From Clostridia bacterium (lineage in GTDB: Bacteria > Bacillota > Clostridia > Oscillospirales > Acutalibacteraceae), in NCBI GenBank assembly GCA_024404235.1, contig JAKSQF010000001.1:1-45832 (forward strand): 45,832 nucleotides of DNA, given 5' to 3'. Every line of letters begins with the position of its first letter. Within the stretch, counting starts at the first letter, position 1. Positions 7,009-36,702 of the stretch are shown piece by piece. A program made the position numbers and the translations under genes. The notes beneath the pieces were generated by a model, which saw only the letters and a program-made list of their open reading frames with translations, made no database searches and was not told the DNA's origin.

Positions 7009-7021
7009 AAACTTTTCCTCC

Positions 7022-15429: not shown

Positions 15430-16854
15430 TTATCTGCTTTCGTTTACAAGTTCATCCAAAAGCGTTTGGACGGTTTCCTTACCGGCGGAAATGATGGTTG
15501 CCGGATCGGTATTCGGGTCACGGGCGATCGGCTTAAAGATCGCGGTGATGGTATACATTTCAAAGTTACGGTCAATTCGGCTGTACATAAATACCGGATC
15601 GTATACGATGTTCGGAAGAATATCCTTTTCAAGAACTTCTGCCGACTCTTCGTCACGGTAGTAGGTCGAGGAAATTTCATCCTGCCAAATGGACAGTTCG
15701 CCGTAAGATGTACCTGCCATAGCTTCCAGAATCAAACCGGTTGCTTCGGGATTGTCGATGGACTTTGGTACGCATACGATCGGGGTGTTGTGGTCGATCG
15801 CACTGTAGTAATGATCAACGTCGGGGCCCATCGGAATCGGAACAAGACCGAAGTCATCGTTCATTTCACGCAAGGCCTGACCGCGCGTGGTCAAATTCAG
15901 GTAGAAGGTGACTTGACCGTTGATGAACATTTCGGTACAAAGCGAAGCATCGCCGCCACCGTAGTAGTAAGCACCCGGTGCGCCGAACATCTTCTTCATT
16001 TTGGTCAGGGTCGGAATAACGTTGGGGTCGGTCATACCGTAGGTTACGGTGCCTTCCTTGCTGATTTTAAGCATATCCAAACCATTTGCGAGGAAGAAAG
16101 CCGTCATACCGCCGTCCAAGCCGCCGGTAACACCGTAAATATCGCTGTTGTCAAACACGGCGTCAGAATTGACGTCCTTCATGGATTTAGCAACCATTGC
16201 CGAGAAGGTATCCCAGTTCCACTTGCCCTGAGCCATCAATTCATACGGATCGTCCAGATTGAGTTCTTCGATCAAACGCTTGTTGAAATAGACGCCGAAG
16301 CCGTGGGTGTAAGGATTGGCAAAAGCGGCGGAAGCGCCATAGCGTTCACCCGAGAACAGAACGGCAGTATCATCATAGATGTTCAGCCAATGATCCTGCT
16401 TAAAGTCGGTATTCGGCAATTTGGACATATCGTAGAGATAGTCGCCGGTAGCCAGCTTACCGTAGGTGAACAGGGTAACGTCCATGACGTCGGCAACCTT
16501 TTCGCCCGACATAATAGCCGGATACATTTCATCATAGAAGCTGGTCGGATCGTAGTATTCATATCTGATTTTGCAGTTGAATTTGTCTTCGATCGCCTTA
16601 TTGCGAGCCAGGATGGCATCGGAAAGTTCCGAAGCGCCGGCTTCCATTACCGGACGGTCATCGGTACCGTAGTAGCAGGCTTCGGCAATGACAAATTCAT
16701 AACCCTTTAAGTCCTTGTTCGGCAGTTTGTCAAGATAGGCAAAATCCGCATTGCCGCCCGCGGCTTTTTTGCCTTCGGAACCCTTACCGCAACCGGCAAA
16801 AGCACCCAGCACCATGACCACGCACAGTGCCATGCAAATCATTCTTTTTTTCAT
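15430..16854 (-). CDS. ABC sugar transporter substrate-binding lipoprotein
   Basis: 474 aa with a lipobox (VLGAFAG-C-GK), an AGGAGG RBS and family-1 solute-binding-protein-like composition. Confidence 0.9.
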   Translation of the reverse strand: MKKRMICMALCVVMVLGAFAGCGKGSEGKKAAGGNADFAYLDKLPNKDLKGYEFVIAEACYYGTDDRPVMEAGASELSDAILARNKAIEDKFNCKIRYEYYDPTSFYDEMYPAIMSGEKVADVMDVTLFTYGKLATGDYLYDMSKLPNTDFKQDHWLNIYDDTAVLFSGERYGASAAFANPYTHGFGVYFNKRLIEELNLDDPYELMAQGKWNWDTFSAMVAKSMKDVNSDAVFDNSDIYGVTGGLDGGMTAFFLANGLDMLKISKEGTVTYGMTDPNVIPTLTKMKKMFGAPGAYYYGGGDASLCTEMFINGQVTFYLNLTTRGQALREMNDDFGLVPIPMGPDVDHYYSAIDHNTPIVCVPKSIDNPEATGLILEAMAGTSYGELSIWQDEISSTYYRDEESAEVLEKDILPNIVYDPVFMYSRIDRNFEMYTITAIFKPIARDPNTDPATIISAGKETVQTLLDELVNESR

Positions 16855-16888: not shown

Positions 16889-17839
16889 TTATCCTACGAT
16901 GCCGCTGCGTTCGATTCCCTGAATCAATTGACGCTGGAACACCAGATAGAATACAAATAACGGTGCGATGATCATAACAACCGCCGTGTTCTGCATTACC
17001 GAGGACATCATCGTTCCGTTGGAAATAGCCTCGGTCGAGATGGCGGTGACCTTATTGAGGATCATCGGCAAAACGGTCATACTGCGATTGAACAGACCGG
17101 AATAGAACGTATCGGTCCATTGCCACGCAAAGGAAAGCACGAAAATGGAAACCAGCATGGAACGTGCCATGGGGAACATAATGGAGAAGAAGGCTTTAAT
17201 GGGATTACAGCCGTCTACCCAAGCTGCCTCATTCAGTTCCTGCGGGACGCCCTTGAAAAACTGGCGTATTACGAAAATGTACAAGCCGTTTTTGAGGCCT
17301 AACGCCGTAAGTGAAAGTAAGATGGACGGCACAACCGTTTCCAGCGGTTTGATCGGCCCGATGCCGAACAGTGAAAGCAAACCGTAAATATCGAAATAAC
17401 GGAAACGGGTATACAGCGCCAAATACAACGTTTGCGGCGGAATGACGATGGTGAAAACCGCCATCAGGAAGAAAAACGTTTTTCCCCTAAACTTAAACTT
17501 GGCAAAACCGTAGCCGACCATACAGCAAACCAGCGTTTGCAAAATGGCGCAGGACAGCGAAATCAACAGGGAGTTGGTGAAGGCCTCCCAGTAGCCGCCG
17601 TACTTCAGCACACGGGTCACGTTATCCCAAGTAGGACTTTGCGGAATTAACCAAACGGTCGGGTTTTGCAGGTCGTCAAGGCTCATAAACATTACCGAAA
17701 TTCTTTTCAAAAACGGCAACAGAATGATGTAGGACAGACCGATCATCAAAATCAGGCGGAACAGCAGCCACGCCCAATTCTTCGGGTGGAATGCGAGCAC
17801 CCAATCCGGTGCATTGATTTTTCTCTTTTTCATACGCAT
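16889..17839 (-). CDS. Carbohydrate ABC transporter permease (MalG/LplC-like)
   Basis: 316 aa with multiple TM helices and a binding-protein-dependent transport signature region (..ELNEAAWVDGCNPIKAFFSIMFPMA..). The true start may be the third codon, ATG 17833, which lies 7 nt from GGGGG. Confidence 0.9.
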   Translation of the reverse strand: MRMKKRKINAPDWVLAFHPKNWAWLLFRLILMIGLSYIILLPFLKRISVMFMSLDDLQNPTVWLIPQSPTWDNVTRVLKYGGYWEAFTNSLLISLSCAILQTLVCCMVGYGFAKFKFRGKTFFFLMAVFTIVIPPQTLYLALYTRFRYFDIYGLLSLFGIGPIKPLETVVPSILLSLTALGLKNGLYIFVIRQFFKGVPQELNEAAWVDGCNPIKAFFSIMFPMARSMLVSIFVLSFAWQWTDTFYSGLFNRSMTVLPMILNKVTAISTEAISNGTMMSSVMQNTAVVMIIAPLFVFYLVFQRQLIQGIERSGIVG

Positions 17840-17845
17840 ACCCCC

Positions 17846-18781
17846 TTAATCACGTTCCTGGTAGAAGGTGAATCGGTAGCAAAGCAACGAAACAAGCCCC
17901 AGTATGATCAGCACAACACCAAAATACAGCCACGCCATTGCCGACGATCCGCTGTAGTTGTTTTTGGCAAAGGCCACGTCGTCGATCAAAAGCATGATCG
18001 GGTTATTGGAACGGGTAAATCCGTCGATGATGACGTAAATCGCATTGACGAAAATGATCGGGCTTAACAGCGGCACGGTGATCTTCCAAAAAGATTCCCA
18101 CGCATTGGCGCCCTCGACCCGAGCCGATTCGTACACGGCAGGTGAAATGCCCTGCAGGCCGGACAAAAACAGGATGATCGGAACACCGGCGTAATTGACG
18201 ACGCTGTAAATATTGTTGACCAGTGCCACCAAATATTCGACCATACCAGTCGGGATCATCATACGTTCAAGCATAGACTGGATATTGGAAATATCAAACC
18301 CGCCCGCGGTCACGGTGGAAACGCCGGTATCAATACCGGCCGATCCGTTGAGGCTTTCGAGCATGGCGTTCATCATATCGGCCTTTAATACCACGCCGGT
18401 AGCCATAATGACCGGCAGGAAGAAAATGGCACGGAAGATGCCGCGACCCGGCATTTGCTGATTGAGAACGACGGCGATGAACAAACTGAAAATCAAGATA
18501 GCGGGGCTTTGTACCAACAGCGTACCGATGAGCGACAGCGTGTTGCGCACAAAGTCGGGGTCCTTAAACAAGGCGTAGCGATAACTCTCCAAGCCGACAA
18601 ACTTTAAGGCGTAACCGTCCTGCCCGACAGACAACTGGTTAAAGCTGAAACGGAACGAGTTGAAAATGATCGGGAAATACAGAAGCACTAATCCGATCAC
18701 AAAGGGGGAAATAAAAAACCAGCCGTAGCGTCCGTTTTTCCGGATCAAAGAAGTCTTTTTCTTTTCCGCTTTTCGGATCAT
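17846..18781 (-). CDS. Carbohydrate ABC transporter permease (MalF/LplB-like)
   Basis: 311 aa with 6 predicted TM segments and an EAA-like loop (..YESARVEGANAWESFWKITVPLL..). Its ATG overlaps the upstream TGA (ATGA, 18778-18781). Confidence 0.9.
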   Translation of the reverse strand: MIRKAEKKKTSLIRKNGRYGWFFISPFVIGLVLLYFPIIFNSFRFSFNQLSVGQDGYALKFVGLESYRYALFKDPDFVRNTLSLIGTLLVQSPAILIFSLFIAVVLNQQMPGRGIFRAIFFLPVIMATGVVLKADMMNAMLESLNGSAGIDTGVSTVTAGGFDISNIQSMLERMMIPTGMVEYLVALVNNIYSVVNYAGVPIILFLSGLQGISPAVYESARVEGANAWESFWKITVPLLSPIIFVNAIYVIIDGFTRSNNPIMLLIDDVAFAKNNYSGSSAMAWLYFGVVLIILGLVSLLCYRFTFYQERD

Positions 18782-21393
18782 TGTACTGCACTCCCCCCCG
18801 CTTTTACTCGGTAATATCCGCCTGCGGGAACCGTGATTCCGTCGGCAGTATAATCGGTTGAATTATAGTTTACATAGATAACGTCACCGGTGGAATAAGT
18901 GACGGCGGAAACCCCTTCGGTCAAAACCTTGTAATCGGTCATGGTGGCGCTCTTCAAATCACCGATGGCTTCATCCACCTGCTTGTAAGCCGAAACGATC
19001 GGCTTTTCCCACGTGTTATAATCCACGGAATAATAATCACTGAAAGCCGTGGATTTCAACACCTTGGCATTGCGGTAAGCGATTTCAAAATACAGATCCG
19101 AGCCGGTTTCGATGGCATTCAAAACAGCGTTTTGATAATTGCCCGAAAGGTTGACTGCACCGGCAGAATAATCCACACGGCCGTGCAAGATCATTTGCAG
19201 GAACGGAACCGCATAATCGGCATCCGGATAACCGCTTGCCACCGACGGAACGTCCAGCAGACGGGAAACGTACGGATAGCAATAGGCGTTTGCACCGGCG
19301 ACCATCAGATCATTCTTTTTATCGGCGCGGGAAAGGATCTCGCAAATATAACGTTTGGATTCGCTTCGGTTTAACCCGTTGCTCTTGCTCTTATCGCTGT
19401 TGAGCGAGGTGCCGAAGCTGCCGAGTGACAAACCGTTTGTTTTCAAAGCGGTATATTTCTTTTCAAAACCGCTATACGAGGCGAGCATGACACGCGGATT
19501 GACGGCATACATAAACTTATCCGGATCGGTAAGGCCCGAGCTGAAAAGTGTTTTGGTATATCCGCTGTAAGTCTTATTCAGCATTCGGCAGGTATCTGCC
19601 TTAGCGGAAAAGTTGACTGCACCCTTGGTCGTATCGACGTAGGTCAGTTCGTTTTCAAAGAAGCGCGAATCGCCCTTTGATTTGAGTTGTTCGGTCAGCT
19701 GTGCCGCCCCCGACTTGCCGCCGATTTTACCGCGGACCGACGACGAAGCGTTGGACACGCGGTTTAACCCGTCCGAAGACCAACCGAGGTAGCGAACGTC
19801 CATCGAAGAAACGCCCTGCTTCTGCAATTTACCAACGGCTTCAAGTGCATCGTCAAAGGTCGTCAGTGCGACCTGCTTTTCAACCGGCACAAACAGGAAA
19901 CTGTCGGTGTGCTTGACGCTGCCGAATAATCCTACCGTGAGATTGGTATTCGTTTTATTTAACGGCTTCAGTTGCAGGCGATCACTGTAATACTCCGCCA
20001 TTTTTCCGTAACCGGAATCGGCCTCCAAAGCCTTATAGCAAACGCGGAAATTACCGTCGAATACGTGCTTATCCGCCAACGTCCAAGAATACTGCGTGTT
20101 GGTATCCTTGTATTCAAAGCTGTCATAATCCGTGTAACGGAAGCTGACGCCGGCATGGGCGTATCCGCTGGAAACACCGCCGGTATTAGCCAGAATATCA
20201 GCCACGGCATCTCCCCCGTCGATCACAGCAAAGAGGGTCTTCTTCTCCGCCTTAACACCGAACACCGGAACCGAAGCCGTCATCAGGTTTTCGTAACCGG
20301 CATTAAAGTTCAGCGAACGGTCGTAACCGTAGACAGGTACGGAAAGATCATTGCCCAGCTTACTGCCGGTGCGGTTAAAGCCCAAAACAGCACCGCATCC
20401 GTCGGGATAAAGAATATAGCCGTCTTCCTTACAATCGGCAGCGGCCAGATATTCCAGCGTGCCGATGTTTAACAGTGTAAAATATTTTTCATCGTAATGG
20501 ATCAGCGAGGACGGAACCGTGACGACCAATTCACCGTCAATCAGCTGATAGCAAACCGAAATTTCAAAACGGGGCGAAGCCTTTTCGACCACGCTTGCGC
20601 CGACAGCCTCAAGATCCTTATCCATATCATCGAGCGTGTAGCCGGCATCCTTGAAATAGCCTTCCAACTCGTTCATTTCACGGTCGGTGATCTTTTTCAG
20701 TACGTAAATCGGTTCTTTGTCAACAATCGGGAAACGGTCACGAATCATTTCCAACTGAGATTCCGACGTTTTTTCGGGATCGTACAGCTTATAAAATGCC
20801 TTTAGCCGACGGGGTGCACGGCCGTCCAGTTGCTCGACTAAATCATTGAATCGCTGTTGCGGAAGAGCGCCCGGTAACAGACGGCGTTGTTCGGCACGAC
20901 CGAGTATCATATTGACCTGAACACCGTTTTTCAACGGCTCGGCAGTATATTGACCCTTAATGACACACTCGTCAAAGCTGTAGATGTGATTGACCTTTTG
21001 TGCGCTGTCTAAGTAGGTCAAATGCAGTTGCGAAGCGATGCGCTGCTTTTGGGTTTGCACGGAACGGTTATCCTCCGCCAAATTCCACGGTGTTGAAAAC
21101 CAAGTACCGTTTTTGGTGACCAGCGCGATATCCGCCGTACTGCTGTCAAACCACAGCTCATTCCCCTGCTCAGTAGCGATCAGTTCCATGGCCGCCAAGC
21201 GTTCCGACTCACTGCCGAAAGAAGGGATTTGTTTCACCGGCGTTTTTAACTTCAACGGTTTGCCGGTTACGGCCGGTGCTTCTTCCTTTTGCCAAGTCAA
21301 AGCTTCCGCATGCGGTTTACGACCGATCAGAAATACGGATGCAACGATGGCAACAACTAAAAGAACAACAATTATTGATCGTAATCTTTTCAT
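18778..21393 (-). CDS. N-terminally membrane-anchored extracytoplasmic protein of unknown function (DUF5696-like by recollection)
   Basis: 871 aa with a single N-terminal TM helix (RSIIVVLLVVAIVASVFLIG) and a large ectodomain. I recognised no catalytic family. The conserved-looking segments VRYLGWSSDGLN, LSLGSFGTSLNSD and VPFLQMILHGRVDYS hint at a TIM-barrel-like fold. Confidence 0.85.
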   Translation of the reverse strand: MKRLRSIIVVLLVVAIVASVFLIGRKPHAEALTWQKEEAPAVTGKPLKLKTPVKQIPSFGSESERLAAMELIATEQGNELWFDSSTADIALVTKNGTWFSTPWNLAEDNRSVQTQKQRIASQLHLTYLDSAQKVNHIYSFDECVIKGQYTAEPLKNGVQVNMILGRAEQRRLLPGALPQQRFNDLVEQLDGRAPRRLKAFYKLYDPEKTSESQLEMIRDRFPIVDKEPIYVLKKITDREMNELEGYFKDAGYTLDDMDKDLEAVGASVVEKASPRFEISVCYQLIDGELVVTVPSSLIHYDEKYFTLLNIGTLEYLAAADCKEDGYILYPDGCGAVLGFNRTGSKLGNDLSVPVYGYDRSLNFNAGYENLMTASVPVFGVKAEKKTLFAVIDGGDAVADILANTGGVSSGYAHAGVSFRYTDYDSFEYKDTNTQYSWTLADKHVFDGNFRVCYKALEADSGYGKMAEYYSDRLQLKPLNKTNTNLTVGLFGSVKHTDSFLFVPVEKQVALTTFDDALEAVGKLQKQGVSSMDVRYLGWSSDGLNRVSNASSSVRGKIGGKSGAAQLTEQLKSKGDSRFFENELTYVDTTKGAVNFSAKADTCRMLNKTYSGYTKTLFSSGLTDPDKFMYAVNPRVMLASYSGFEKKYTALKTNGLSLGSFGTSLNSDKSKSNGLNRSESKRYICEILSRADKKNDLMVAGANAYCYPYVSRLLDVPSVASGYPDADYAVPFLQMILHGRVDYSAGAVNLSGNYQNAVLNAIETGSDLYFEIAYRNAKVLKSTAFSDYYSVDYNTWEKPIVSAYKQVDEAIGDLKSATMTDYKVLTEGVSAVTYSTGDVIYVNYNSTDYTADGITVPAGGYYRVKAGGSAVQ

Positions 21394-21403
21394 ATTGCAC
21401 CCG

Positions 21404-23569
21404 CTACATTCTGAACGTGATTTCGTTATAGATATTCTTGAGCATTGAACCCATCTGACCGATCAGGTTGACGAACAGCAGTCCCAAGAAGACGATGATC
21501 AGCATACCGACAACGGTGAGTATCACGGCAATTACATTCTTGCCTAACTGGTAATCGTGCGTGGAAAGAACAGAGCAGAACAGCAGGAAGCCTGTCCACA
21601 GATAACCGACGGTAAAGAAGAAGTTGACGAACATCAACTCGTTTGCCGTAACGAAATTACTGAGGATGGTTGCCGGAACAGTGAAGAACACCAGCGGCAC
21701 TAAAGCATAGCAGGTAGCTACGTAAATATCCTTCAAGCCGCCTTCGCCGTACATCAAACTGGTCAAGCACCAGTTGGCGATGCACCAAACCGCCACCACA
21801 CCGATGATAACCATCAGGTTGGCAAAAATATTGGTGTCAACATTTTGGCGGCCGGTATAGATATAACCCATTCCGACGGTACGGAACAGCAGCGAAACTG
21901 CCGCAAGTGCCAAAATGACGGTTGCCCCGCGTACGCCACCGCGTTTTGAACGTTTCAGTTCCCAATAGCCGTCAAACGGGTGGAAAATAACGTAGAAGGC
22001 AAACATAATTTCCTGACGGAGCGGGCGTTTACCCGTTACCGTAGAAGGAACGGCGCTGTTGAACTTTTTGGCGAATTTAAAGAATCTTGAAATTAAATAG
22101 CAAAGGAGAACTGCCAACACAGGCACCAGCAAAATATAATTGCCGAGCTTTTCACGGCGGTATTCGGAATAGGCCTCCGAATAATCCTCGACGTCGTTGG
22201 CAAGCTCGAAATAACCCATCGCTTCCTTATATTTGCCCTGCCGACGAAGTGCCGTGCCGATTCCGATATTGGCTAAATCGAAATTGGCGTTTTCAAGCAA
22301 AATCTTCTTATAAACGCCCACGAGCTGTTCGTACTCACGGTCGGCCGATAACTGAATGGCATTCAACACCAGAGCACCGTAGTTGGTCTTTTCAAAAACT
22401 GTAATACTGCCGGCCGCGGCATCCAATGCGTACATATTCATATCGGTATCGTATTCGATGGCGCTGAGCTGACGGAAAAGACCGAACTGATAACCCGTAC
22501 CGCCGTAGGCATACAGCAGGTTACCGTTTTCATCATAGGTAAAGATCTTACCGCGCTTTTGGTCGGCCAATGAATAAACACCGTTATACCCGACCGCCGC
22601 ATCCATAATACTGGAAGGGCCGTAGAAAATATCGGTATTCGTGGCGTTGCCGCCGGTAGCCATGGAGATTTCAACGTCACCGGCCGGCGGGAATGCACCG
22701 TTACGGATCAGCACGTCTTCTCCGGCGGAATTCAGCTTTTTGATCATTGCAAAGCGGTTTTCCGTGCTGCGGCTTTGAATGGTTTGAATAACGGCATTGA
22801 CGTCGGAGTAGGTCGAAGTAACGTACAAAAATCCTTTTTCGTCAATGGCGATATTGTTGTAGTTGGTAGGAACATAGCTTAACGTACGTTTTTTCTGTTC
22901 CTCGGTCATAAAGCGACGCCAGATGCGGTCTGCGACCGAAACGGTAACCTTTTGCGCACCGATGAAGGTGGAAAATTCGCCGTCCGGATTCAGTGCAACA
23001 ACACCGTAGGTATTACCGACCGAAACAATATAAATACGGCCCGCTTTATCAACCGAAAGCTTTGTCGGAATGTAGGAAAAATCGTGCGGCAGCAAACCGG
23101 ACACCGGTCGCTCGACTACCTGCACGCAGGTCAAATCCCGATCAAAAACGTAAATCTTCAAGCCGGTGGAGTCCGCCACGTACAGCTTGCCGTCTTCAGT
23201 GACAAAAACACCCGTCGGCTTCGTTAAGGCGTATTCTTTTCCTTCAAATTGAAATGAAGAAATGGCCTGTGCAGAGGAACGGTCCGCAGAAGTGACCACC
23301 ACTCGAGCGTTATCCGTATCGGCAATATAGATCCTGCCGTCCTTGTCCACACACAGATCCTGCGGATTTGCAAGCTTGCCGATGCCGAGGTTAGCTCCGT
23401 CAATTCGTTTTTCCGGAACGTAGGCATGCGGCGATTCAACCGACTCACCCTCATAATTATAAGAATAGGTCGAATAAGGGACATTATTATCCGCTGACAC
23501 GGAAAGCGATGCTGAAAATACCGTCAGCAAAGCCAGTACGAACATTAAAATCCGCTTAGCGTATTTCAC
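21404..23569 (-). CDS. Fusion protein: secreted 6-bladed NHL-repeat beta-propeller plus TPR-like segment plus C-terminal Yip1-type polytopic membrane domain
   Basis: 721 aa with a GTG start and AGGAAGGGA 5 nt upstream, and a signal peptide. NHL-like blades include PQDLCVDKDGRIYIADTDNARVVV, PTGVFVTEDGKLYVADSTGLKIYVFD, PTKLSVDKAGRIYIVS and three more. The TPR-like segment is ..GTALRRQGKYKEAMGYFELA... About 6 TM helices follow, with a Yip1-like entry motif (FYVIFHPFDGYWELKRS). The stop is TAG. Confidence 0.88.
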   Translation of the reverse strand: MKYAKRILMFVLALLTVFSASLSVSADNNVPYSTYSYNYEGESVESPHAYVPEKRIDGANLGIGKLANPQDLCVDKDGRIYIADTDNARVVVTSADRSSAQAISSFQFEGKEYALTKPTGVFVTEDGKLYVADSTGLKIYVFDRDLTCVQVVERPVSGLLPHDFSYIPTKLSVDKAGRIYIVSVGNTYGVVALNPDGEFSTFIGAQKVTVSVADRIWRRFMTEEQKKRTLSYVPTNYNNIAIDEKGFLYVTSTYSDVNAVIQTIQSRSTENRFAMIKKLNSAGEDVLIRNGAFPPAGDVEISMATGGNATNTDIFYGPSSIMDAAVGYNGVYSLADQKRGKIFTYDENGNLLYAYGGTGYQFGLFRQLSAIEYDTDMNMYALDAAAGSITVFEKTNYGALVLNAIQLSADREYEQLVGVYKKILLENANFDLANIGIGTALRRQGKYKEAMGYFELANDVEDYSEAYSEYRREKLGNYILLVPVLAVLLCYLISRFFKFAKKFNSAVPSTVTGKRPLRQEIMFAFYVIFHPFDGYWELKRSKRGGVRGATVILALAAVSLLFRTVGMGYIYTGRQNVDTNIFANLMVIIGVVAVWCIANWCLTSLMYGEGGLKDIYVATCYALVPLVFFTVPATILSNFVTANELMFVNFFFTVGYLWTGFLLFCSVLSTHDYQLGKNVIAVILTVVGMLIIVFLGLLFVNLIGQMGSMLKNIYNEITFRM

Positions 23570-23596: not shown

Positions 23597-24463
23597 TCAA
23601 TCTTTCATACCCGAGGTTGCAAGTGTTTCAACAACCTGCGACTGAGTCAGTACAAAAATCAAAATCGGAACGATCATCATCAGTACCGTAGCCGCCGCCG
23701 AAGCGCCGACGCGGGTAACGCCGCCCGAAAGAATTTGATGCAATGCATAGTTCAGCGGTTTTAAATCTTCACGGTAAATGTAGTTTGTATCTGCCAAGTT
23801 CCACAGTCCTTGGAACGAGAAGATGACCAACGTAAGCCATGCAGGCTTGACCATCGGCATTACGATGCGGAAGAATATCAAAAATTCGCCGGCACCGTCA
23901 ATTCGTGCCGCTTCCAGAATACCGTCGGGTATCATCTGCTCAATAAACTGCTTCATTAGGTACAGTCCCAAGGATGACCCGAACGCGGGAACGACCAATG
24001 CCGCCAGCGTATCGACCCAGTGCAACCGTGCCATAATGATAAAGTTCGGAATGGCAGTAACGGTGGCATTGAACATCAACGACAAAACAACAATATTAAA
24101 CAGGAAATTCTTTCCGCGGAAATCGAATTTACAAAGAGCGTATGCACACATCGAGGCCAGCACAACGTGTCCGCCGGTGCCCACGATGGTGACAAACAGC
24201 GTATTGAAAATGTAACGCGAGAACGGAACGGTCGAATCGTCCAAAATGCGGAACAGCTCTTTGAAGTTTTTGAACGTAGGATTATGAACGAAGAAGCGCG
24301 GCGGATAAACCCATAATTCATCGGCCGGTTTCAGCGAGGTGCAGATGGCGTAAATCATCGGCAAAGCCATAAACAAGCCTACCGTAAACAGGAAAACGCC
24401 GATGCAGATATCCCCGCCCAAAGAACGGTTCAAACGGTGTGTGTGTAATTTGATTTTAGCCAT
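23597..24463 (-). CDS. Carbohydrate ABC transporter permease (MalG/LplC-like)
   Basis: 288 aa with 6 TM segments and an EAA loop (..ILEAARIDGAGEFLIFFRIVMPMV..). Its ATG directly abuts the TAA of the upstream gene (24461-24466). Confidence 0.92.
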   Translation of the reverse strand: MAKIKLHTHRLNRSLGGDICIGVFLFTVGLFMALPMIYAICTSLKPADELWVYPPRFFVHNPTFKNFKELFRILDDSTVPFSRYIFNTLFVTIVGTGGHVVLASMCAYALCKFDFRGKNFLFNIVVLSLMFNATVTAIPNFIIMARLHWVDTLAALVVPAFGSSLGLYLMKQFIEQMIPDGILEAARIDGAGEFLIFFRIVMPMVKPAWLTLVIFSFQGLWNLADTNYIYREDLKPLNYALHQILSGGVTRVGASAAATVLMMIVPILIFVLTQSQVVETLATSGMKD

Positions 24464-25360
24464 TTACTCACCCACCTTCGAAATAATTCTGCGAATAACA
24501 AAGTTACTGATAACCATAATGATAAACAGCACCGTGGCGATTGCAGAAGCATAACCCAATTCGTAACGGGCAGTACCGTAATCCTGCAGGTGGTTTACCA
24601 TGGTATGCGCGGCATAGTTGGTGGACGGGTTACCGGCCAACTGCGTAACAATGGCACCCACGCCGAAGGAGGCGGTAATGCTTAATACCGCACTTAACAG
24701 CATTTGCGGCCGCATCAGCGGTAAGGTAACGTACCAAAGCTCCTGCCAGCGGTTGGTGATGCCGTCGATCGAGGCGGCTTCATAATAAGTTTTATCCACA
24801 CCCTGAAAACCTGCAATAAAGGTCAAGAAGCTGGTACCAAGGCTGCTCCACAAAGCAACGACGGCAATGATCGGCAGAATGTAATCTTCGTTTCTCAGCC
24901 AAATGATCGGTGCGGAAATTAAGCCGCTGCGCATCAAGAAGCCGTTTAAGTAACCGTAAGCGTCACCGCTGAAAACAGCCTGCCAAACGAGGTACATATT
25001 GCCCGAAATGGACGGAGCATAGAAAATAAGGGTTACGATCGCGCGGGCCGTCGGCCGAAGCTCGTTGATAAACCATGCAAACAGCAGGCAGAGAATATAA
25101 CCGAGCGGGCCGGTGATCAAGGCCAGAATAAAGGTGTTCCCGATAGACTTGATGAAGATTTCATCCTGCAGAAACAGGCGTATATAGTTCTGCATTCCGA
25201 TGAATTTCGGAATTTGGAACATATTGAAATCGGTGAAGCTGAGGAAAATAGACATCAGAACCGGGAGAACCGTAAACGTGAAGAAAATGCAAAAGTACGG
25301 CAGTATAAAGAACCACACAACGCCCTTTGACTGGCGCTTGTATGCTTTTCCCAATTTCAT
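24464..25360 (-). CDS. Carbohydrate ABC transporter permease (MalF/LplB-like)
   Basis: 298 aa with 6 TM segments and an EAA loop (..YYEAASIDGITNRWQELWYVTLPLM..). AGGAGGGG RBS lies upstream. Confidence 0.92.
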   Translation of the reverse strand: MKLGKAYKRQSKGVVWFFILPYFCIFFTFTVLPVLMSIFLSFTDFNMFQIPKFIGMQNYIRLFLQDEIFIKSIGNTFILALITGPLGYILCLLFAWFINELRPTARAIVTLIFYAPSISGNMYLVWQAVFSGDAYGYLNGFLMRSGLISAPIIWLRNEDYILPIIAVVALWSSLGTSFLTFIAGFQGVDKTYYEAASIDGITNRWQELWYVTLPLMRPQMLLSAVLSITASFGVGAIVTQLAGNPSTNYAAHTMVNHLQDYGTARYELGYASAIATVLFIIMVISNFVIRRIISKVGE

Positions 25361-25373
25361 TCTATCCCCTCCT

Positions 25374-28250
25374 TTATTCAGTCGGCAAACCGAATTCGGC
25401 GCGCTTGCGGGTAATTTCGCTGTTCAGCATTTCAACCTGCTTTAAGATGGCCGCATCCGGCTTTTTGCCGTTGGCATAAACCGAAGCGAAAGCAAAGTCG
25501 ATGGCACGGGCCGTGTAGTAGCCGCCCGGAATTTCCGGTGTGCCCTGCAGGTGCTGTGACTGATCCTTCAAAGCCGCATATTCGGCATCGGTCCAGGACA
25601 TTCCTTCAATGGCGCCGAGGTTTGCGGTGGCGTGCTTTGCGGCAACGCCCAAAACCGATTCGACCTCGATTGCATAACGGCTTTGAGTTTCGGTCGAGGT
25701 GACCCACTTCATAAACTCCCAAGCCTTATCCTTTTGCTTGCAGGATTTCAACATCATAATGCCCGAGGAAGCGGCCGGTGCGGTGTAGTTGATCGAGCCG
25801 TCCGCCTGCTTTGTTCCGGGAACGGGAGCCATTGCCCAAAGTCCCTTAATTTCGGAAGCAAAGATGGTCAACTGATTATACATCGTGTATTCCGTAATGC
25901 CGATAGGCATTTCACCGCTTCTGAAACGGTTGGCAAAGTCGTAATCGACCGGCAGACGGTACAGGGTAAACAGTTCGGACATCCGTTCAAAGCAGCGGAT
26001 GTTCAAATCCTGCGACATCTGCGATTTTGTAAATTTATCGTTATACAGCGAGCCGCCGTTTTGATAAAGGAACAGCTCCAAGCCGTACAGATTCATATTG
26101 GAAACGACCGACGTTTTGGCATTGATTGGATAACCGAAGTCCAGATTCTGCTGTTGCAGCTTCCAAATGACCTCATAGAATTCATCCCACGTTTTCGGCG
26201 GTTGCAGGCCGAGTTCTTCAAAGATGTCCGTACGGTAGAACATCATTAAGAAGGTCATCGTTTCGGGCAGCGCATAGGTTGCCCCGTTAAACGAGAACGG
26301 CGTCAGCGCAGCGCTGTGGAAACGGGTAGTGGTTTCCTCGAAGCCGGGCATATCTTTCAGATCAACAGCCGCGCCGCGGATGGCAAAGTCGATCGGCATA
26401 TGGGAGGTGACGTTCATGGCGACGTCCGGTCCGGTGCCTGCCAGTACCGACGGCAGCAACGCGGTCGGTGTAACCAACTGAACGTTGACCTTGATACCCG
26501 TTTGCGGGGTGAAGTACTGTTCGGTCAGCTTCTGCATGATCTGGCATTGCTCACGTCCGTTTGACATCCAAACCGTGATCACGTTTCCTTTTTTGTAGTC
26601 ATCTTCCGTGATATCACCCGCAAAGGACTGATAATCCTGGAAGAAGCTGAGGAAGAAACGCTTGATCTTAAACCAAAGGTTTTTGAAGAAGGAATCACTC
26701 GATTCGGGTGCTTTTTCATCGGCCGGGCTGATATACAGCTGATCCAAATCCAACGGTTGAACCATAATCGACTGGATCCAAGTACCCAATGAAGAGAGGT
26801 TATCTTTATAGGTCGAGAACAGCTCCGAAATGGATTCGGGGTTTTCGCACATCTTATCCAACACAATGGTCAGCTTACCGATCGAATTGGTAAAATCACC
26901 CTTGGAGTTGGTCATTTCGTTTAACGCATCAATCGTTTTATTCAGTTCCTTACTTTGCTTTGCAAAGTCTTCCAAAACTTCCGGAATCAGCTCGTCATAA
27001 CCGTAGTCACGGTAGATATCCGGTGTCGGGCCCGTGATGATCAAAATACGGCGGTAGTCGGCGTTCAAAGCAGACAGTGCATCCTGTATGCGGGCGATCA
27101 CCGGTGCCATATCGCCGAGGACGACCTCTAACTTGAGGGTATGTTTGCCTTCCTCTAAGAAGAAGCGGAACGGTTCTTCGGCACCGAGGGCCGCATTTTT
27201 CCAAGTGTCGGTATAATCGAAGCGGATCCACTGTGCTTCCTCGAACGGGCAAACATCATCAATGTAAAGCTTTCGGGAGGTAAATCCGCCGTCGTAATAA
27301 TCCTGCTTGTAGCGGGTGGAGATTTTATAATATCCGGTCTTTTTGACGTCGATATCCCAAGAGAGCCATTGACCGGTTTGACCCCATTTGTCACCGCTGA
27401 TCACATTCAGCACCGTTTTAACCGGATGCTGCGGTGAAAGCGAAGCGGAGGATTTATCCCCCGTGGGGTAAACGGTGAAGGTCGATTTTTCGGTGACCTT
27501 TTCGGCCTCGACGGTGATGGTTTCACAATCGACCGAATCACCCGGATGGGCTGCAAGGTAATCTTTATAAGTCGGGACGGTGATTTCCGGATAGAAGCGC
27601 AGGCCGATGACCTCTAACTTTTCACGGTCGGCCCGCAGGGATACGGTATGCTCCCCTTTAGTCAGATGAACCGAAAGGTTGCCGGGTACGTAGTTTTCGG
27701 CATCGTGCAACGTATAGGTCATCACACGCGGGGCCTCCAACTGCTCCGGCGTGACTTCGTCACCTTTGGCGTTGGTTTGAACAGCGTCGTCTTTATAAAC
27801 GCGGGAGAAGTTGAGGTACTGTGCCTGATCGTACGGAACTTTGCCGTCAATCAGCAAGGTACGCTCGATCATACCGCCCTTGGAAACCGTCGGGAAATAT
27901 GAAACGTCCAACTGATAAAAGCCTTCGCTTTGGGCCGTGAATTTCCAGGTTGCCGTGCTGTCCCCTTCGGTCAGCAGGCCACCGTTTTCACCCTTGGAAA
28001 CCGTTCCGGTAGTTGAGGCAGTATCAAGACCGGCAATATTGATTTCACCTTCGGCAACGGCAGGCTTTTCGATTTCCGCCCGATATTTTGCATAAGCGGA
28101 CTCCAAAACCAGCGTGCCGGGTGCCGTTTTTTTCTGATCCTTCGATGCCCTTCCGGCCGAAACAACCGACTGCAAAATAAAGATCAGCACCAAACATATT
28201 GCCGTTATTATACAAATTAATTTTTTCTTTTGTTCAAAAAAACGTGCCAC
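25374..28250 (-). CDS. Very large extracellular solute-binding protein: signal anchor, two CBM6/35-like beta-sandwich regions, a helical region and a C-terminal family-1 sugar SBP domain
   Basis: The ORF track start, ATG 28313, sits inside the -10 box of the promoter, so I prefer GTG 28250..28248, with GGGGTGG 4 nt upstream. The protein begins VARFFEQKKKLICIITAICLVLIFILQSVVSA. The SBP fold starts about 26591 (GNVITVWMSNGREQCQIMQKLTEQYF...). The exact start remains uncertain. Confidence 0.85.
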   Translation of the reverse strand: MARFFEQKKKLICIITAICLVLIFILQSVVSAGRASKDQKKTAPGTLVLESAYAKYRAEIEKPAVAEGEINIAGLDTASTTGTVSKGENGGLLTEGDSTATWKFTAQSEGFYQLDVSYFPTVSKGGMIERTLLIDGKVPYDQAQYLNFSRVYKDDAVQTNAKGDEVTPEQLEAPRVMTYTLHDAENYVPGNLSVHLTKGEHTVSLRADREKLEVIGLRFYPEITVPTYKDYLAAHPGDSVDCETITVEAEKVTEKSTFTVYPTGDKSSASLSPQHPVKTVLNVISGDKWGQTGQWLSWDIDVKKTGYYKISTRYKQDYYDGGFTSRKLYIDDVCPFEEAQWIRFDYTDTWKNAALGAEEPFRFFLEEGKHTLKLEVVLGDMAPVIARIQDALSALNADYRRILIITGPTPDIYRDYGYDELIPEVLEDFAKQSKELNKTIDALNEMTNSKGDFTNSIGKLTIVLDKMCENPESISELFSTYKDNLSSLGTWIQSIMVQPLDLDQLYISPADEKAPESSDSFFKNLWFKIKRFFLSFFQDYQSFAGDITEDDYKKGNVITVWMSNGREQCQIMQKLTEQYFTPQTGIKVNVQLVTPTALLPSVLAGTGPDVAMNVTSHMPIDFAIRGAAVDLKDMPGFEETTTRFHSAALTPFSFNGATYALPETMTFLMMFYRTDIFEELGLQPPKTWDEFYEVIWKLQQQNLDFGYPINAKTSVVSNMNLYGLELFLYQNGGSLYNDKFTKSQMSQDLNIRCFERMSELFTLYRLPVDYDFANRFRSGEMPIGITEYTMYNQLTIFASEIKGLWAMAPVPGTKQADGSINYTAPAASSGIMMLKSCKQKDKAWEFMKWVTSTETQSRYAIEVESVLGVAAKHATANLGAIEGMSWTDAEYAALKDQSQHLQGTPEIPGGYYTARAIDFAFASVYANGKKPDAAILKQVEMLNSEITRKRAEFGLPTE

Positions 28251-28280
28251 AAAACCACCCCTGCGACAATTTGTTGTATT

Positions 28281-28290
28281 TTTTGTATTA
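28281..28290 (+). promoter_or_regulatory. Candidate operator box TTTTGTATTA in the 5' leader of operon A
   Basis: It matches 9 of 10 positions of the ATTTGTATTA box. It lies between the predicted TSS (~28305) and the start codon (28250) of the minus-strand operon. Confidence 0.5.
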
Positions 28291-28311
28291 AATGATAATT
28301 CTACCAATCGC

Positions 28312-28340
28312 ATTATATCATATATTTTTCAACAAAGCAA
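28312..28340 (-). promoter_or_regulatory. Sigma-A-type promoter of operon A: TTGCTT - 17 nt - TGaTATAAT (extended -10)
   Basis: The minus strand reads TTGCTT (28340..28335), a 17-nt spacer ending in TGA, then TATAAT (28317..28312). Confidence 0.65.
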
Positions 28341-28512: not shown

Positions 28513-29583
28513 ATGTCGTATACCGGTAAAAAATCCGCTATTGCAACCGAATATATTGAAAATTATATTAAAACCCACGCATTAAAGCCGGGCAGCCGCT
28601 TACCGACCGAGTCGGAATTATCCAAACAGATCGGTACCAGCCGTGTAACGCTTCGACGTGCATTGGCCAATCTGCAGGAGCGGGGATTGATTTACAGCAT
28701 TCAAGGCTCGGGTTACTTTGTTTCCAGCCCGACGCTGGATTTGAAGGACGCTACCATTCCGCTTGTAATTTCTTACAATCACGAGGATTCCAAAATTCTG
28801 AATATCGTACGCGGCGCGCAGGACTATTTGGGTCAAAAGAAATGCCAGCTGGACGTACATATTTCCAAGAGAGATCCGCAGGTTGAAAAGGAACTGCTGC
28901 AAAATCTGTATGATTCCGGACACCGTTGCTGCATCATCTTCCCCGTTTCCAGTGAGGATAACGTTTCATTCTACTTCAGCCTGATCCAAAAAGGGATGCA
29001 TTTGGTTTTTCTGGACCGTCAGCCGCAGAACATCAGCTGTTGCAGTTTGGTAAAGTCGGACAATATGACGGGCGGTTACCTCGCAACCAAGCATTTGATC
29101 GAGCAGGGGCATCAGCAAATCGCCGTATACGGGTTAGAGCCGTTGACCCACACCTCTGCCAGCTACGAACGGTATTTAGGTTATATGCAGGCTATGGCTG
29201 AAAGCAATTTGCCCGTTCCCGAAAAAAGTTATTACTTTTCGCCCTACCGCAAGCTGAGTAGCGACGCACGCAGTTTGCTTTCAAAAGAAAGCGGCATTAC
29301 CGCCGTGTTTGCCATCAACGACCATGCCGCCGTTGATATTGCGACCCACGCATACAATTTGGGGTTGAAAATTCCGAACGACTTTGCCGTAGTAGGCTTT
29401 GATAATTTGGACATCACCACCATTTTTACCCCGCAGCTTTCCACCGTGGAACAGCCCTTTACACAGATCGGACGCGCGGCGGCACAAATCGCCTTCCGTT
29501 ATTTTTCGGAACAGAATTTCGGGATTACCCAACAAATTCTTCCAATTAAGCTGATCGTACGCGAATCCAGCGTAAGCCGTTAA
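28513..29583 (+). CDS. AraR-type transcriptional regulator (N-terminal GntR winged-helix DNA-binding domain plus LacI/GalR-like periplasmic-binding-fold sugar sensor)
   Basis: 356 aa. The N terminus ..LPTESELSKQIGTSRVTLRRALANLQERGLIYSIQGSGYFV is a GntR-type HTH. The C-terminal part ..AVFAINDHAAVDIATHAYNLGLKIPNDFAVVGFDNLD.. is a LacI-family effector fold. The nearest GGAGG is 25 nt upstream, so the RBS is weak. Confidence 0.9.
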   Translation: MSYTGKKSAIATEYIENYIKTHALKPGSRLPTESELSKQIGTSRVTLRRALANLQERGLIYSIQGSGYFVSSPTLDLKDATIPLVISYNHEDSKILNIVRGAQDYLGQKKCQLDVHISKRDPQVEKELLQNLYDSGHRCCIIFPVSSEDNVSFYFSLIQKGMHLVFLDRQPQNISCCSLVKSDNMTGGYLATKHLIEQGHQQIAVYGLEPLTHTSASYERYLGYMQAMAESNLPVPEKSYYFSPYRKLSSDARSLLSKESGITAVFAINDHAAVDIATHAYNLGLKIPNDFAVVGFDNLDITTIFTPQLSTVEQPFTQIGRAAAQIAFRYFSEQNFGITQQILPIKLIVRESSVSR

Positions 29584-29647: not shown

Positions 29648-32600
29648 TTATTTTGTCGCTTCATCCTTTTTCTTTTTCTTGCGGAAGAAGAACGGAATGA
29701 TGAAGAATACCACGGCACCGGCGCCTAAGCCGATGATGATCGTGCGGAGCTGCTCGATCTTATCGGCAAGCTTCTGCGGATAGGGTGTTAATTCCGCACC
29801 CTTCAAGCCGCCGTTGACCTTATTGCCAACGTTTTTGCCGGCCGCTTCACTACGCATGAAGACGATCGGCTCGACCGGGTTATTGTTAGCGGTGGAACCG
29901 CCTTCGGCCGTTAAGCGCAGGTTGTCGATGTAAACCATACAATCCGGCGTTCCCTCATCGCATCCGAGGAAATAGATACGGAAGAAGTTAAAGGCTTTCT
30001 TGTTTAGACCGCCGTTGACCGAGCTTTGCGGTTTATCCAAATCGAATTCAAAATGGTACCACTTATTGCCCTTGTTACCCTCGGTCAAATCCTGAGCGAG
30101 TTCCGGACAAGCCAGCAGGATCAGCGAACGGGTATAACGGTCGGATTCCTTATCGCAGGTACCGGAGGAGGTCAATTCAACCATAAATCCGGTAGAGGTC
30201 TGCAAGCAGGTAATATCCGAAAGGAACATATCAAACTGCAGGGTGTGATACTTGGAAATATCCAGCGGTTCCGACGGAATGAAGGCAAGCTGCTTCAATA
30301 CACCGCCGGGTGCCAGTACCGATACAGAGCCCGTGCCTTCAACCTTGTTTTTGGTATCCACACGGATTTCCTGACGACAGCTCCAACCGAAGGAACTGTC
30401 GCAATCGCTGAGGATCATATAGCGATCATTTTTGATAATGCCGGGGGCCTTTTCACCCTTAACAAAACGCATATTATCAAAGGCGATCGTATAATCCTTT
30501 GTACCCTTTTCAACATCGACCGTATAGAAGCGGAAGTAATTGAACGCCGACTTATTCAAGCCGCCGCGTACTTCTGCGTGCGGACGGTCAAGATCCAGCT
30601 TGAAATGGTACCAGCCGCCGCCCTTGCCGGCATCAATATCAGCCGCAAATTTGGGGCAGGCTTCAAGCATGGAGGATTTTGTAAAGCGGCTGGATTCATA
30701 GTCGCACTTACCGGCAGAGGTCAGTTCGAACATCGTGCCGCCGGCCTTATTAAACCAATCAAGATTGGAGAAATAAACGTCAAATTCAAGATAACGGTAA
30801 TCCGAAACGTTTATCGAAGCGGACGGAACGTAGGAAATCTGCTTAAGCAAGCCGCCCGGAACCGTAACAGAAACAGAAGAATTGCCCTGTGTCTTCAGTT
30901 TGCGGTTCAGTTGCGGATCGCCGACCGAGGATTTCCAGTAAGCCGAAGCATCGCCGTCGGTCATATACATCGAATTGGAATCGATCTTCTTACCGTAGGA
31001 CGGATCGGCCGAAAGCGGACCGTCGCCCGAGTTACCCTTTGTAAAGGTCAGATTATCGAAATTAAGGACGTAATCTTTTGTGCCCGACTGAACGTCGACC
31101 GTGTAGAAGCGGAAGTAGTTGAACTTGGATTTATTCAAGCCGCCGCGTACCGAGGTGTGCGGATTATCCAAATCTAGCTTGAAGTGATACCAGCCGCCGC
31201 CTTTACCGGCATAAACGTCCGAAGCGAACTGCGCACTAGCTTCCAAAATAGAAGATTTGGTATAACGGGCAGACTGATCGTCGCACTTGCCGGCAGAGGT
31301 CAGTTCGAACATCATACTGCCGGTTTTGTCAAACCAATCCAAATTGGAGAAATAGACGTCAAATTCCATATAACGGTAGGCCGAAATATCCAGCGGGACG
31401 CCCGGAACATAGGAAATTTGTTTCAACAAGCCGCCCGGAACCGTTACCGTTACCGAGGAGTTGCCTTCAGTCTTGTTTGCGGTGTCCAACTGCGGGTTAC
31501 CGACAGAAGAATTCCAGTAAGCCAGCGTATCACCGTTGGTCATATACATCGAAGAACCGTTGATCTTCTGACCGAAGGACGGATCGGCCGATTGCGGTTT
31601 GTCGCTGCCGCCTGCATCCTTGGTGAACTTCATATTATCAAACTTGATATCGCAATCAGCAGTACCGGCAGGCGAACCGATGGCGAAGAAACGGAAGTAA
31701 TTGAAACGTTTCATATCCAAGCCGCCGCGCACCTGAGTTTGTGCAGAGCCGAGTCTCAGTTTCAAATGATACCAACCCGGTTCTGCCGTACCCGAAACCG
31801 CATTGGTGTAGAATTCGGTTTCGTTATCACGCAGATAGCCCTTCATATAGCGGTCGGATTCATTATCCGCAGCGCCCGAAGAGGTCAATTCGAACATCAT
31901 ACTGGTACAGCTGTTGAACCATTCCATGTTCGAGAAGTAAACGTCGAATTCCAAATAATCGTACTGGGAAATATCCAATGCCGTGCCGGGCAGTACAACA
32001 AACTGACGCAAGTTACCGTTAACGGCGGTCACCGCAGCAGAGCCCTTGCCCTGCGTGAGGTTTTCTTTATCGGTGGTGACCGTTGCACCCGAAACGGTGA
32101 TGCCGGTCAGGGTGTCGCAATCCGACAGCCACATATTGCCCTTGCTGTCGATACTACCGGCCGAGGTATCTGCCGCGGCGTCGGTGATTTCATCGGTAGC
32201 CGAGCCGGGAGTCGGCAAAACGTCGGTACGAAGCGTAATATCGTCAAACAGAACCGTTGCATCGGTGCCGGTGACGGCAAAACGCAATTCGGTCATATTC
32301 TTCAAAACGCCGGTGCTGTCCGAAAGGACTTTATCCTCACTGTTGGTCAAGCGGGCAAAGTTGAAGGTGTAGGCCGTGTACTGATCCTTACCGACGGTAT
32401 AGGACGTTGCACGCTTAGTGCCGGTAACGATGGTGGCGTTATAGATTTCATCGGCCGAAACGATCTGAACAGACAACTGTGCAGTGGTTTTCGCCTTAGC
32501 ATAAACCGTAATGCCGCTGTAATTCTGATACTGCTTAACCGTGCCGCCGTAATTTAACACGGGGGTCATATAGCCGTTTGCACCGCTGTAGGTCATCTTG

Positions 32601-35866: not shown

Positions 35867-36702
35867 TTCGCACCCTCCGATTTATTTCTTTTGATTCTGA
35901 TAATCAGTACAACCACAAAACGAATGATCAACAGCAGCAGCACGACGGCAACCGCAATGGCAACGGTATATTCGGTTTGCAGTTTTTTGTTCAGTTCTTT
36001 GTCGACACCCTTGTTGGGATCGCTGTGCTTCGGCACGTAGATCTCCGACTCGGCCGCTTGATTACCCGTTTCCTCTTCCTCGGCGATCGGCGTATAGTTT
36101 GACGGGTTATTGGTGAAACGGAAATTGTCAAATCTTACAGTATAATCCGGTGTGGACGTGATCGGATCGACCGAATAGAAGCGGAAATAGTTGAAGTTGG
36201 CTTTATCCAATCCGCCGTTTGCTACGCCCTGAGGATTGTCGATATCCAAGACGAAGTGGAACCAGTTTTGCTGATCCTCGATTGCGCCCGTTTCAAACAG
36301 TTCGCGCAACGTTTTTTTCATATAACGGTTGGATTCTTTATCGCTGGTACCGGAAGAAGTCAATTCCATCATGACCGATCCGCAATCGTTGAACCAAGTG
36401 ATATTCGTAAAATAAATATCAAATTCAAGATAACGGAAATCCGTAATATCGATCGACTTTTCCGGCTTATAGCAGATTTGATTCAGTTTACCGTTCATGG
36501 CCGTAGCACCGATCGAGCCGGCACCCTCGGTCTTGTTATTGGCATCGGATTCGAGCGCGTCCATACCCTGCGTGCTGGCCGACCAGTCTTTCGTACTGTC
36601 GCAGTTGCTCATCACAAGGTCACCGGCACCTGCGGCGGATACGGGGAAATTGAGTAAAACGAAAGCCAAAACAAGGCAAATCAAAGCAGTTAAACGTTTC
36701 AT
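35863..36702 (-). CDS. Small anchored surface protein: signal peptide, one copy of the giant protein's repeat module, a linker and a C-terminal TM anchor
   Basis: 279 aa starting MKRLTALICLVLAFVLLNFPVSA. The module blocks are LVMSNCDSTKDW...IDITDFRYLEFDIYFTN...MMELTSSGTSDKESNRY...WFHFVLDIDNP...GGLDKANFNYFRFYS...FDNFRF. The anchor is TVAIAVAVVLLLLIIRFVVVLIIRIKRNK. GGGGGAGGAAAGGAA RBS lies upstream. Confidence 0.9.
   Translation of the reverse strand: MKRLTALICLVLAFVLLNFPVSAAGAGDLVMSNCDSTKDWSASTQGMDALESDANNKTEGAGSIGATAMNGKLNQICYKPEKSIDITDFRYLEFDIYFTNITWFNDCGSVMMELTSSGTSDKESNRYMKKTLRELFETGAIEDQQNWFHFVLDIDNPQGVANGGLDKANFNYFRFYSVDPITSTPDYTVRFDNFRFTNNPSNYTPIAEEEETGNQAAESEIYVPKHSDPNKGVDKELNKKLQTEYTVAIAVAVVLLLLIIRFVVVLIIRIKRNKSEGAK

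Follow-up and report, generated by a model that had tools for sequence, protein, structure and literature searches.

A protein joining an NHL propeller to a Yip1 membrane domain, encoded beside a GH129-like partner among ABC importer genes of Clostridia

We studied a stretch of 45,832 nucleotides from a Clostridia bacterium of the family Acutalibacteraceae (GenBank assembly GCA_024404235.1, contig JAKSQF010000001.1, positions 1 to 45,832), hereafter called the window, and in it a gene that encodes an NHL beta-propeller, a TPR-like helical stretch, and a Yip1 membrane domain (NHL-TPR-Yip1). The gene is one continuous open reading frame (ORF) at 21404..23569 on the minus strand, of 721 aa plus the stop codon, with a GTG start codon and, 6 nt before it, a GAAGGAAGGG ribosome-binding site. 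A search of a collection of 5.8 billion proteins returned 484 significant matches among the scored candidates, which shows that this frame is a real gene and not a chance ORF. It lies in a run of minus-strand genes that encode, in order, a 979-aa solute-binding protein (SBP), two permeases, NHL-TPR-Yip1, a protein of the family DUF5696, two further permeases, a 474-aa SBP, a glycoside hydrolase (GH) of family 38, and a GH42-like protein. From the gene of the large SBP through that of the small one, the intergenic gaps range from -4 to 34 nt, and 67 nt separate the small SBP from GH38. This tight packing is consistent with one operon. A scan of the window for promoters and terminators gave counts close to those expected from shuffled sequence and no convincing internal terminator.

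Domains were called with Pfam models judged against their curated cutoffs (gathering scores), and an AlphaFold2 (AF2) model was built on a 33-sequence alignment (mean predicted local distance difference test [pLDDT] 83.7, predicted TM-score [pTM] 0.67). Together with hydropathy, these analyses support the domain order proposed in a first-pass annotation of the window, i.e., signal peptide, NHL propeller, TPR-like helices, and Yip1. The features of the protein are given below with their positions on the minus strand. The Sec-type signal peptide covers residues 1–26 (23492..23569). Its Kyte-Doolittle hydropathy peak spans residues 7–25 and is followed by a cleavage-type site between SVSA and D; there is no lipobox. 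The AF2 model has a helix at residues 2–19 in this region, then a low-confidence linker.

The predicted extracytoplasmic part begins with a six-bladed NHL beta-propeller (residues 29–394, 22388..23485), identified by Pfam (NHL and SGL), by the AF2 model, by Foldseek, and by sequence matches to the PDB. The Pfam NHL model (PF01436) reaches 51.9 bits at residues 66–92 (cutoff 20), and the SGL model (SMP-30/gluconolactonase/LRE-like) 30.2 bits at residues 67–201 (cutoff 26.3); SGL, SBBP, and TEN_NHL are further propeller matches at the level of the clan. In the AF2 model, six four-stranded blades close into a propeller at about residues 33–394, with pLDDT values mostly between 84 and 95. This propeller carries a conserved helical insert at about residues 204–235 and a loop at about residues 285–320 that is modelled with low confidence. 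The first-pass annotation had called for a Foldseek comparison of a structure model, and this search of the PDB, made with the full-length model, returned the NHL domains of TRIM71, TRIM2, Brat, and Thin, the designed propeller Pizza6, and the ectodomain of PknD. The target TM-scores for the propeller are about 0.75–0.83 (0.77–0.83 for TRIM71, Pizza6, and PknD). The matches were dominated by the propeller, and none was informative for the Yip1 part. A sequence search of the PDB agrees, with NHL domains at E values of 1e-15 to 1e-9. The model and the structural matches thus bear out the six NHL-like blades that had been read from the sequence. The blade motif on which that reading was based holds in part: one blade matches it exactly and two match with one substitution each (0.03 expected in shuffled sequences), but a fourth fits only with five substitutions, and it takes the AF2 model to recognise blades 5 and 6. 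Four invariant aspartates (D71, D133, D336, and D383) are located in the repeated blade motif. Matches to the NCBIfam models ScyF, ScyE, CIS12, and a PVC haem protein were far below the cutoffs of these models and were set aside as generic propeller similarity. Binding of a glycan by the propeller is plausible.

Between the propeller and the membrane lies a TPR-like stalk of five helices (residues 395–475, 22145..22387), which are antiparallel in the AF2 model (396–409, 413–426, 431–443, 447–456, and 460–475). The earlier call of a TPR-like stretch is therefore supported by the fold and by several homologues that carry precomputed Pfam TPR matches (PF00515, PF07719, and PF13432), but the protein itself has no Pfam TPR match at E<=0.01. 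Residues 409–468 match designed CTPR proteins and CTR9 in the PDB weakly (E 0.03–0.4), and the TPR assignment is a soft one.

The membrane part starts with a first transmembrane helix (TM1; residues 479–497, 22079..22135), seen both in the hydropathy profile and in the AF2 model. The latter shows a long membrane helix at residues 481–506, followed by a helical juxtamembrane segment (517–540) and by five more membrane helices. The segment between TM1 and these helices is a basic loop (residues 498–548, 21926..22078) with 11 lysines and arginines against 3 acidic residues. Because of these 11 basic residues, the loop is predicted to be cytoplasmic and the propeller and TPR-like stretch to be outside, in agreement with the hydropathy profile and with the extracellular placement of the propeller in the first-pass annotation. 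The loop holds HPFDGYWELKRSKRG, the 15-residue window in which the family is most conserved, and within it lies the motif FHPFDGYWELK (residues 529–539, positions 21953–21985) that had been taken as the entry into a Yip1 domain. This assignment stands, as do the approximately six transmembrane helices: the Pfam Yip1 model (PF04893) scores 48.9 bits against a cutoff of 28.6, with residues 526–695 aligned to positions 2–171 of the 173 of the model, and hydropathy (Kyte-Doolittle) gives six transmembrane segments, with five peaks within residues 549–700. The five-helix Yip1 core (residues 549–721, 21407..21925) is delimited by Pfam, hydropathy, AF2, and conservation, and its helices in the AF2 model are at residues 546–566, 581–605, 612–636, 642–671, and 675–720; the predicted topology of the Yip1 domain is N-terminus in, with five transmembrane helices. 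Conservation is about equal across all domains (43–53% pairwise identity). Two other stretches of the Yip1 region, NWCLTSLMYGEGGLK (residues 599–613) and STHDYQLGKN (residues 669–678), are also among the top-ranked conserved windows and are both in predicted cytoplasmic loops, so that all three of the most conserved motifs of this region are predicted to face the cytoplasm.

The first-pass annotation had described the fusion of propeller and Yip1 domain as unusual. This is a relative term, and the architecture is in fact common in Firmicutes. Full-length homologues number in the hundreds, at 32–70% identity, and come from Clostridia, Oscillospiraceae, Ruminococcus, and Paenibacillus; in databases they are named "YIP1 family protein". 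Almost all the matches listed in the search described above are 700–745 aa long, with 94–100% query coverage, and carry both PF04893 and PF01436. The closest relatives of the organism are uncultured Clostridia of the rumen and omasum, with 70% identity to a metagenome-assembled genome (MAG) from sheep omasum (locus L001 of the sample described below). We also searched with the Yip1 part only (residues 470–721) against 1.84 billion cluster representatives (50%-identity clusters), which gave 1654 matches at E<=1e-3, of which 1168 at E<=1e-10. The best 150 of the 1654 include 145 new representatives. Most of these (93/145) are at least 650 aa long with the match at the C-terminus, and 22 are at most 260 aa long, mostly complete proteins of 200–215 aa that start just before an HPFDGFW motif.

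The genomic context of the short Yip1 proteins was analysed at five loci, one of them on a contig too short to be informative (L101). At three of the five (L015/L016, L017/L018, and L099), a separate gene of 479–493 aa is immediately upstream of the short Yip1 gene and encodes an NHL propeller, a TPR stretch, and a C-terminal transmembrane anchor, the latter corresponding to TM1 of the fused protein. The split Yip1 gene encodes 201–212 aa, the gap between the halves is 6–35 nt, and the position in the operon is the same as that of the fused form. On another short contig (L100), DUF5696 is directly downstream of the short Yip1 gene. The break point of the split is the cytoplasmic loop after TM1. 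The fusion is thus the dominant natural form, and a minority of lineages, independent of one another, have it split. Because the split halves are intact, adjacent, and in the same cassette, they point to a functional unit and not to a misassembly. The earlier description of a single fused protein is upheld, since the separate genes of other lineages are intact neighbours and not frameshifted versions of this sequence. The Yip1 domain is kept even where the ectodomain has an anchor of its own, which suggests that it is more than a tether.

The first-pass annotation had also proposed that the protein feeds the adjacent permeases. To place the gene in its neighbourhood, we mapped the proteins of the window onto 95 loci, here numbered with the prefix L, and counted only those with enough flanking sequence. 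The sample comprises nine loci from genomes, 80 from metagenomes, and several contigs with selected homologues; its sources are metagenomes of sheep, human gut, and other origin, and it includes two Paenibacillus genomes. DUF5696 is directly downstream of NHL-Yip1 in 75/75 evaluable loci. The second permease pair then follows in 61 of 62, whereas the first pair is directly upstream in 62 of 71, the other nine lacking an adjacent upstream pair. Most loci, those of Paenibacillus isolates included, also have the large SBP, and the small one is often there as well. The invariant core is therefore NHL-Yip1, DUF5696, and the downstream permease pair. The link to adjacent permeases gains from the conserved synteny over the 95 loci, but the invariant partners are DUF5696 and the downstream pair rather than the upstream one. 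Two of the nine exceptions were examined (L053 and L075), and they lack both the first permease pair and the large SBP. This minimal cassette was seen in L053, L075, and L067, and also in L064, L074, and L091; in L067 it occurs twice, in tandem. Upstream of it are a GH140-like apiosidase and acid-sugar genes in L053, and GH10, an SBP, and a Laminin_G_3 lectin-like protein in L075.

Across the same loci, NHL-Yip1 is 38–41% identical, the permeases 43–58%, the large SBP 32–37%, and DUF5696 about 26%. DUF5696 and the large SBP thus diverge faster than NHL-Yip1 and the permeases, a pattern of sequence identity that would fit substrate-specific DUF5696 and SBPs working with a more generic NHL-Yip1.

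The obligate partner, DUF5696, is encoded directly downstream at 18778..21393 (minus strand) and is a protein of 871 aa. It has a membrane anchor at its N-terminus and is modelled with a fold like that of GH129 and GH101. A PDB search with the single sequence gave no match. We built an AF2 model from 25 homologues (pLDDT 87.4, pTM 0.83), which combines a membrane helix at the N-terminus with beta-sandwich domains, a (beta/alpha)8-like barrel, and a beta-sandwich at the C-terminus. Foldseek matched this model to the 3,6-anhydro-D-galactosidase of Zobellia (ZgGH129; GH129, E 4e-29), to Bifidobacterium NagBb (GH129, E 8e-23), to endo-alpha-GalNAcases (GH101, E ~1e-15), and more weakly to various GH31 and GH36 proteins. 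A profile of the DUF5696 family against PDB sequences retrieved the same two GH129 proteins (NagBb, E 9e-6; ZgGH129, E 1.5e-5). Three acidic residues of the barrel region, D667 (in LNSDK), D726, and E762, are near-invariant and are candidate catalytic residues. The most plausible reading of DUF5696 is a glycosidase-like protein related to GH129, anchored in the membrane and facing outward.

The other members of the cassette are those of sugar importers. The first permease pair (298 and 288 aa, BPD_transp_1; 23597..25360, minus strand) is immediately upstream of NHL-TPR-Yip1, and the second (311 and 316 aa; 16889..18781, minus strand) is downstream of DUF5696. The large SBP (979 aa; 25374..28313, minus strand) is membrane-anchored and has its SBP_bac_1 domain at residues 593–877, after a long N-terminal extension; beyond the transmembrane anchor, this extension of about 560 aa gives just a weak hint of CBM35. 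The long form (939–1050 aa) is kept in the cassette across Clostridia and Paenibacillus. The small SBP (474 aa; 15430..16854, minus strand) is a lipoprotein with the lipobox FAGC. Divergent from the operon, at 28513..29583 on the plus strand, is the gene of a regulator with a GntR-type helix-turn-helix (HTH) and a LacI-type sugar-binding domain, homologues of which adjoin the cassette in six loci (L001, L010, L013, L014, L055, and L088).

The enzymes encoded around the cassette differ from locus to locus. GH38 is present in the window, and GH125 and GH76 are beside the cassette in Paenibacillus (L010 and L014), where the same type of regulator flanks it. GH125 and GH76 are the hallmark enzymes for fungal alpha-1,6-mannan. 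A system specific for alpha-mannan, to which these three enzymes had pointed, was discarded as a general rule, since other loci hold GH10, GH28, a GH140-like apiosidase, GxGYxYP, pectate-lyase-like genes, or none of these. Overall, the flanking carbohydrate-active enzymes (CAZymes) vary widely, and some loci have housekeeping genes only (L012 has no CAZymes). This variation shows that the cassette is a portable generic module joined to different enzyme sets.

In the window itself, two large proteins with a pectate-lyase fold (Pect-lyase_RHGA_epim) and three sizeable ORFs without a Pfam match surround the cassette (together at 7022–10678, minus strand; 36718–39522, minus; 4981–7074, minus; 51–1676, plus; and 35863–36702, minus), along with two GH38s, the GH42-like protein, and an FAD-dependent oxidoreductase. 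This gene content suggests a complex target glycan. A 2072-aa ORF (29648–35866, minus strand) has a SASA-type carbohydrate esterase domain (residues 634–850) as its only recognised domain. Two other minus-strand genes (2942–4885 and 44069–45706) encode proteins that end in a type I dockerin, one of them with DUF285/BspA-type leucine-rich repeats; given these two dockerin proteins, the organism is probably cellulosome-bearing.

These observations raise the question of what NHL-TPR-Yip1 does. The reading that we favour, with a probability of about 0.5, is that it is a probably non-catalytic accessory or scaffold subunit that couples the capture and processing of glycans at the surface to ATP-binding cassette (ABC) import of the CUT1 type. 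After cleavage of the signal peptide, the N-terminal ~450 residues would be exposed on the outer side of the membrane and form a six-bladed propeller, carried by a short TPR-like stalk and tethered by TM1. The propeller and the TPR-like stretch would hold the substrate glycan, the partner ectoproteins (the GH129-like DUF5696 and the SBPs), or both near the membrane. The Yip1 module would use its conserved cytoplasm-facing motifs to dock on the CUT1-type permeases or on their ATPase, and the oligosaccharides released at the surface would be handed directly to the importer. The precedent for such a role is YknW, which acts in the assembly of its ABC transporter. Here we infer the physical complex, the binding of glycan or partners, and the lack of catalysis from the architecture, the predicted topology, and the gene neighbourhood.

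Several points weigh against this reading. The transmembrane topology comes solely from hydropathy and the positive-inside rule. The varied or absent CAZymes make the substrate of the cassette, and even its nutritional role, uncertain. Enzymes occur among the six-bladed propellers of this clan, and the SGL score above the Pfam cutoff makes a catalytic role of this one compatible with the data. Finally, YknW, which belongs to the Yip1 family and is required for, and modulates, the assembly of the YknXYZ ABC transporter (PMC4887032), has as its partner a MacB-type exporter and not a type I importer, which makes the analogy a loose one.

Among the other explanations, the one that survives best is a transient factor of assembly or biogenesis, which would help DUF5696 and the 979-aa SBP to be inserted, folded, or positioned, or help the two ABC importers to assemble. 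Such a role would echo that of YknW in assembly and that of eukaryotic Yip1 in trafficking, and TPR motifs are typical modules of protein–protein interaction. It would also fit a substrate-independent function, given that NHL-Yip1 is more conserved than DUF5696 and the large SBP and that the cassette is found with many different CAZyme sets. However, the gene is present 1:1 in the operon with structural genes, and the large and well-conserved propeller seems to exceed what a chaperone would need. A transient and a stable association are indistinguishable in silico; on balance, we regard the assembly factor as rather unlikely.

Somewhat less likely still is a catalytic propeller, an enzyme outside the cell (for example a lyase, lactonase, or hydrolase) that would act on the glycan or on one of its decorations, with Yip1 as its tether. 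Beta-propeller polysaccharide lyases and hydrolases exist, and the SGL match, together with the weak NCBIfam similarity to ScyF/ScyE propellers, leans in this direction. The NCBIfam matches are nevertheless far below cutoff, and the best structural neighbours, TRIM71, TRIM2, Brat, and the PknD sensor, are NHL domains that are not enzymes. The four invariant aspartates belong to a repeated motif and outline no obvious single active site, and the cassette already has a glycosidase-like protein in DUF5696.

The first-pass annotation had suggested a sensor, which in its explicit form would be a receptor that detects a glycan outside the cell and regulates the operon by signalling through the membrane. 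The sensor ectodomain of PknD, a six-bladed NHL propeller, is among the structural matches, and the conserved cytoplasmic motifs could contact a regulator. This role is unsupported because the protein has no cytoplasmic output domain: Pfam identifies no kinase, HTH, GGDEF, or other such domain, and the cytoplasmic parts amount to a loop of ~50 residues and short inter-helix loops. Moreover, the locus already has its own cytoplasmic regulator with a sugar-binding domain, and in every locus the NHL-Yip1 gene is within the structural operon, between permeases and DUF5696. We therefore consider the sensor improbable. An artefactual fusion, by misassembly or read-through of two genes, would be in line with the separate halves of some lineages but is practically out of the question. 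Independent homologues that are fused and full-length number in the hundreds and stem from isolates, MAGs, and metagenomes alike, the ORF is uninterrupted and its junction loop conserved, and the split forms are intact neighbouring genes.

The favoured reading, of an accessory subunit for glycan import, has a broader and more tentative extension, which we consider possible but doubtful. NHL-TPR-Yip1 and DUF5696 might be the core of a widespread and hitherto unrecognised Gram-positive machine for the surface capture, cleavage, and hand-over of glycans, built on type I ABC importers, with Yip1 as the transmembrane coupler to the transporter or its ATPase. If so, monoderm bacteria would have an equivalent of the Bacteroidota utilisome, and a bacterial Yip1 protein would for the first time have a defined role in nutrient import. 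The machine would further establish a new family of enzymes related to GH129, give a function to DUF5696, and provide a general organising module for the use of polysaccharides in monoderms. The usual picture of glycan uptake in Gram-positive Firmicutes of gut, rumen, and soil combines enzymes, secreted or anchored, with an ABC importer that depends on an SBP. To this picture the cassette adds two large, conserved, membrane-tethered proteins, and culturable Paenibacillus carry it.

The searchable literature yielded no account of the NHL-Yip1 family, DUF5696, or the cassette. Neither Yip1 nor NHL comes up in a 2026 review on the glycoside transporters of bacteria, and the cassette is not described in the literature on GH76, GH125, and GH38 or in a paper on a xanthan locus. 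Literature searches for Yip1 with NHL and ABC found only the work on YknW, and those for Yip1 with glycoside hydrolase, permease, and operon found none. What is new is how the domains are combined, that the protein is obligately paired with a GH129-like one, and that it is embedded in sugar importers; each kind of domain was known, as was one Yip1–ABC precedent.

This precedent, YknW of the Bacillus YknWXYZ system, was compared at the level of the Pfam family. Like NHL-TPR-Yip1, it is a bacterial polytopic Yip1 protein encoded in an operon with membrane components of an ABC transporter. It differs in having no large ectodomain and in its partners, a MacB-type exporter and a membrane-fusion protein rather than a CUT1-type importer; the neighbours in the cassette include no MacB/FtsX or membrane-fusion protein gene and instead encode type I importer permeases and SBPs. 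The relation to ABC accessory proteins of the YknW type is thus one of analogy, not of membership. PknD of Mycobacterium tuberculosis shares a six-bladed NHL propeller held outside the membrane on a transmembrane tether (target TM-score ~0.77), but its tether leads to a cytoplasmic Ser/Thr kinase, whereas that of NHL-TPR-Yip1 leads to a five-helix Yip1 domain and has the TPR-like stalk between propeller and membrane. Eukaryotic Yip1/YIPF proteins have the Pfam Yip1 domain, five transmembrane helices, and a cytoplasmic N-terminal entry segment; they work together with Rab GTPases in ER–Golgi vesicle traffic and lack an extracytoplasmic propeller. The likeness seen here is in domain and predicted topology. 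The Sus-like utilisomes of Bacteroidota offer a functional parallel, which we infer from non-catalytic surface proteins and a surface glycosidase being encoded with a dedicated transporter. Proteins, envelope, and transporter all differ entirely, and the utilisomes use SusC/D TonB-dependent transport in the outer membrane, whereas the cassette would serve an ABC importer in the membrane of a monoderm.

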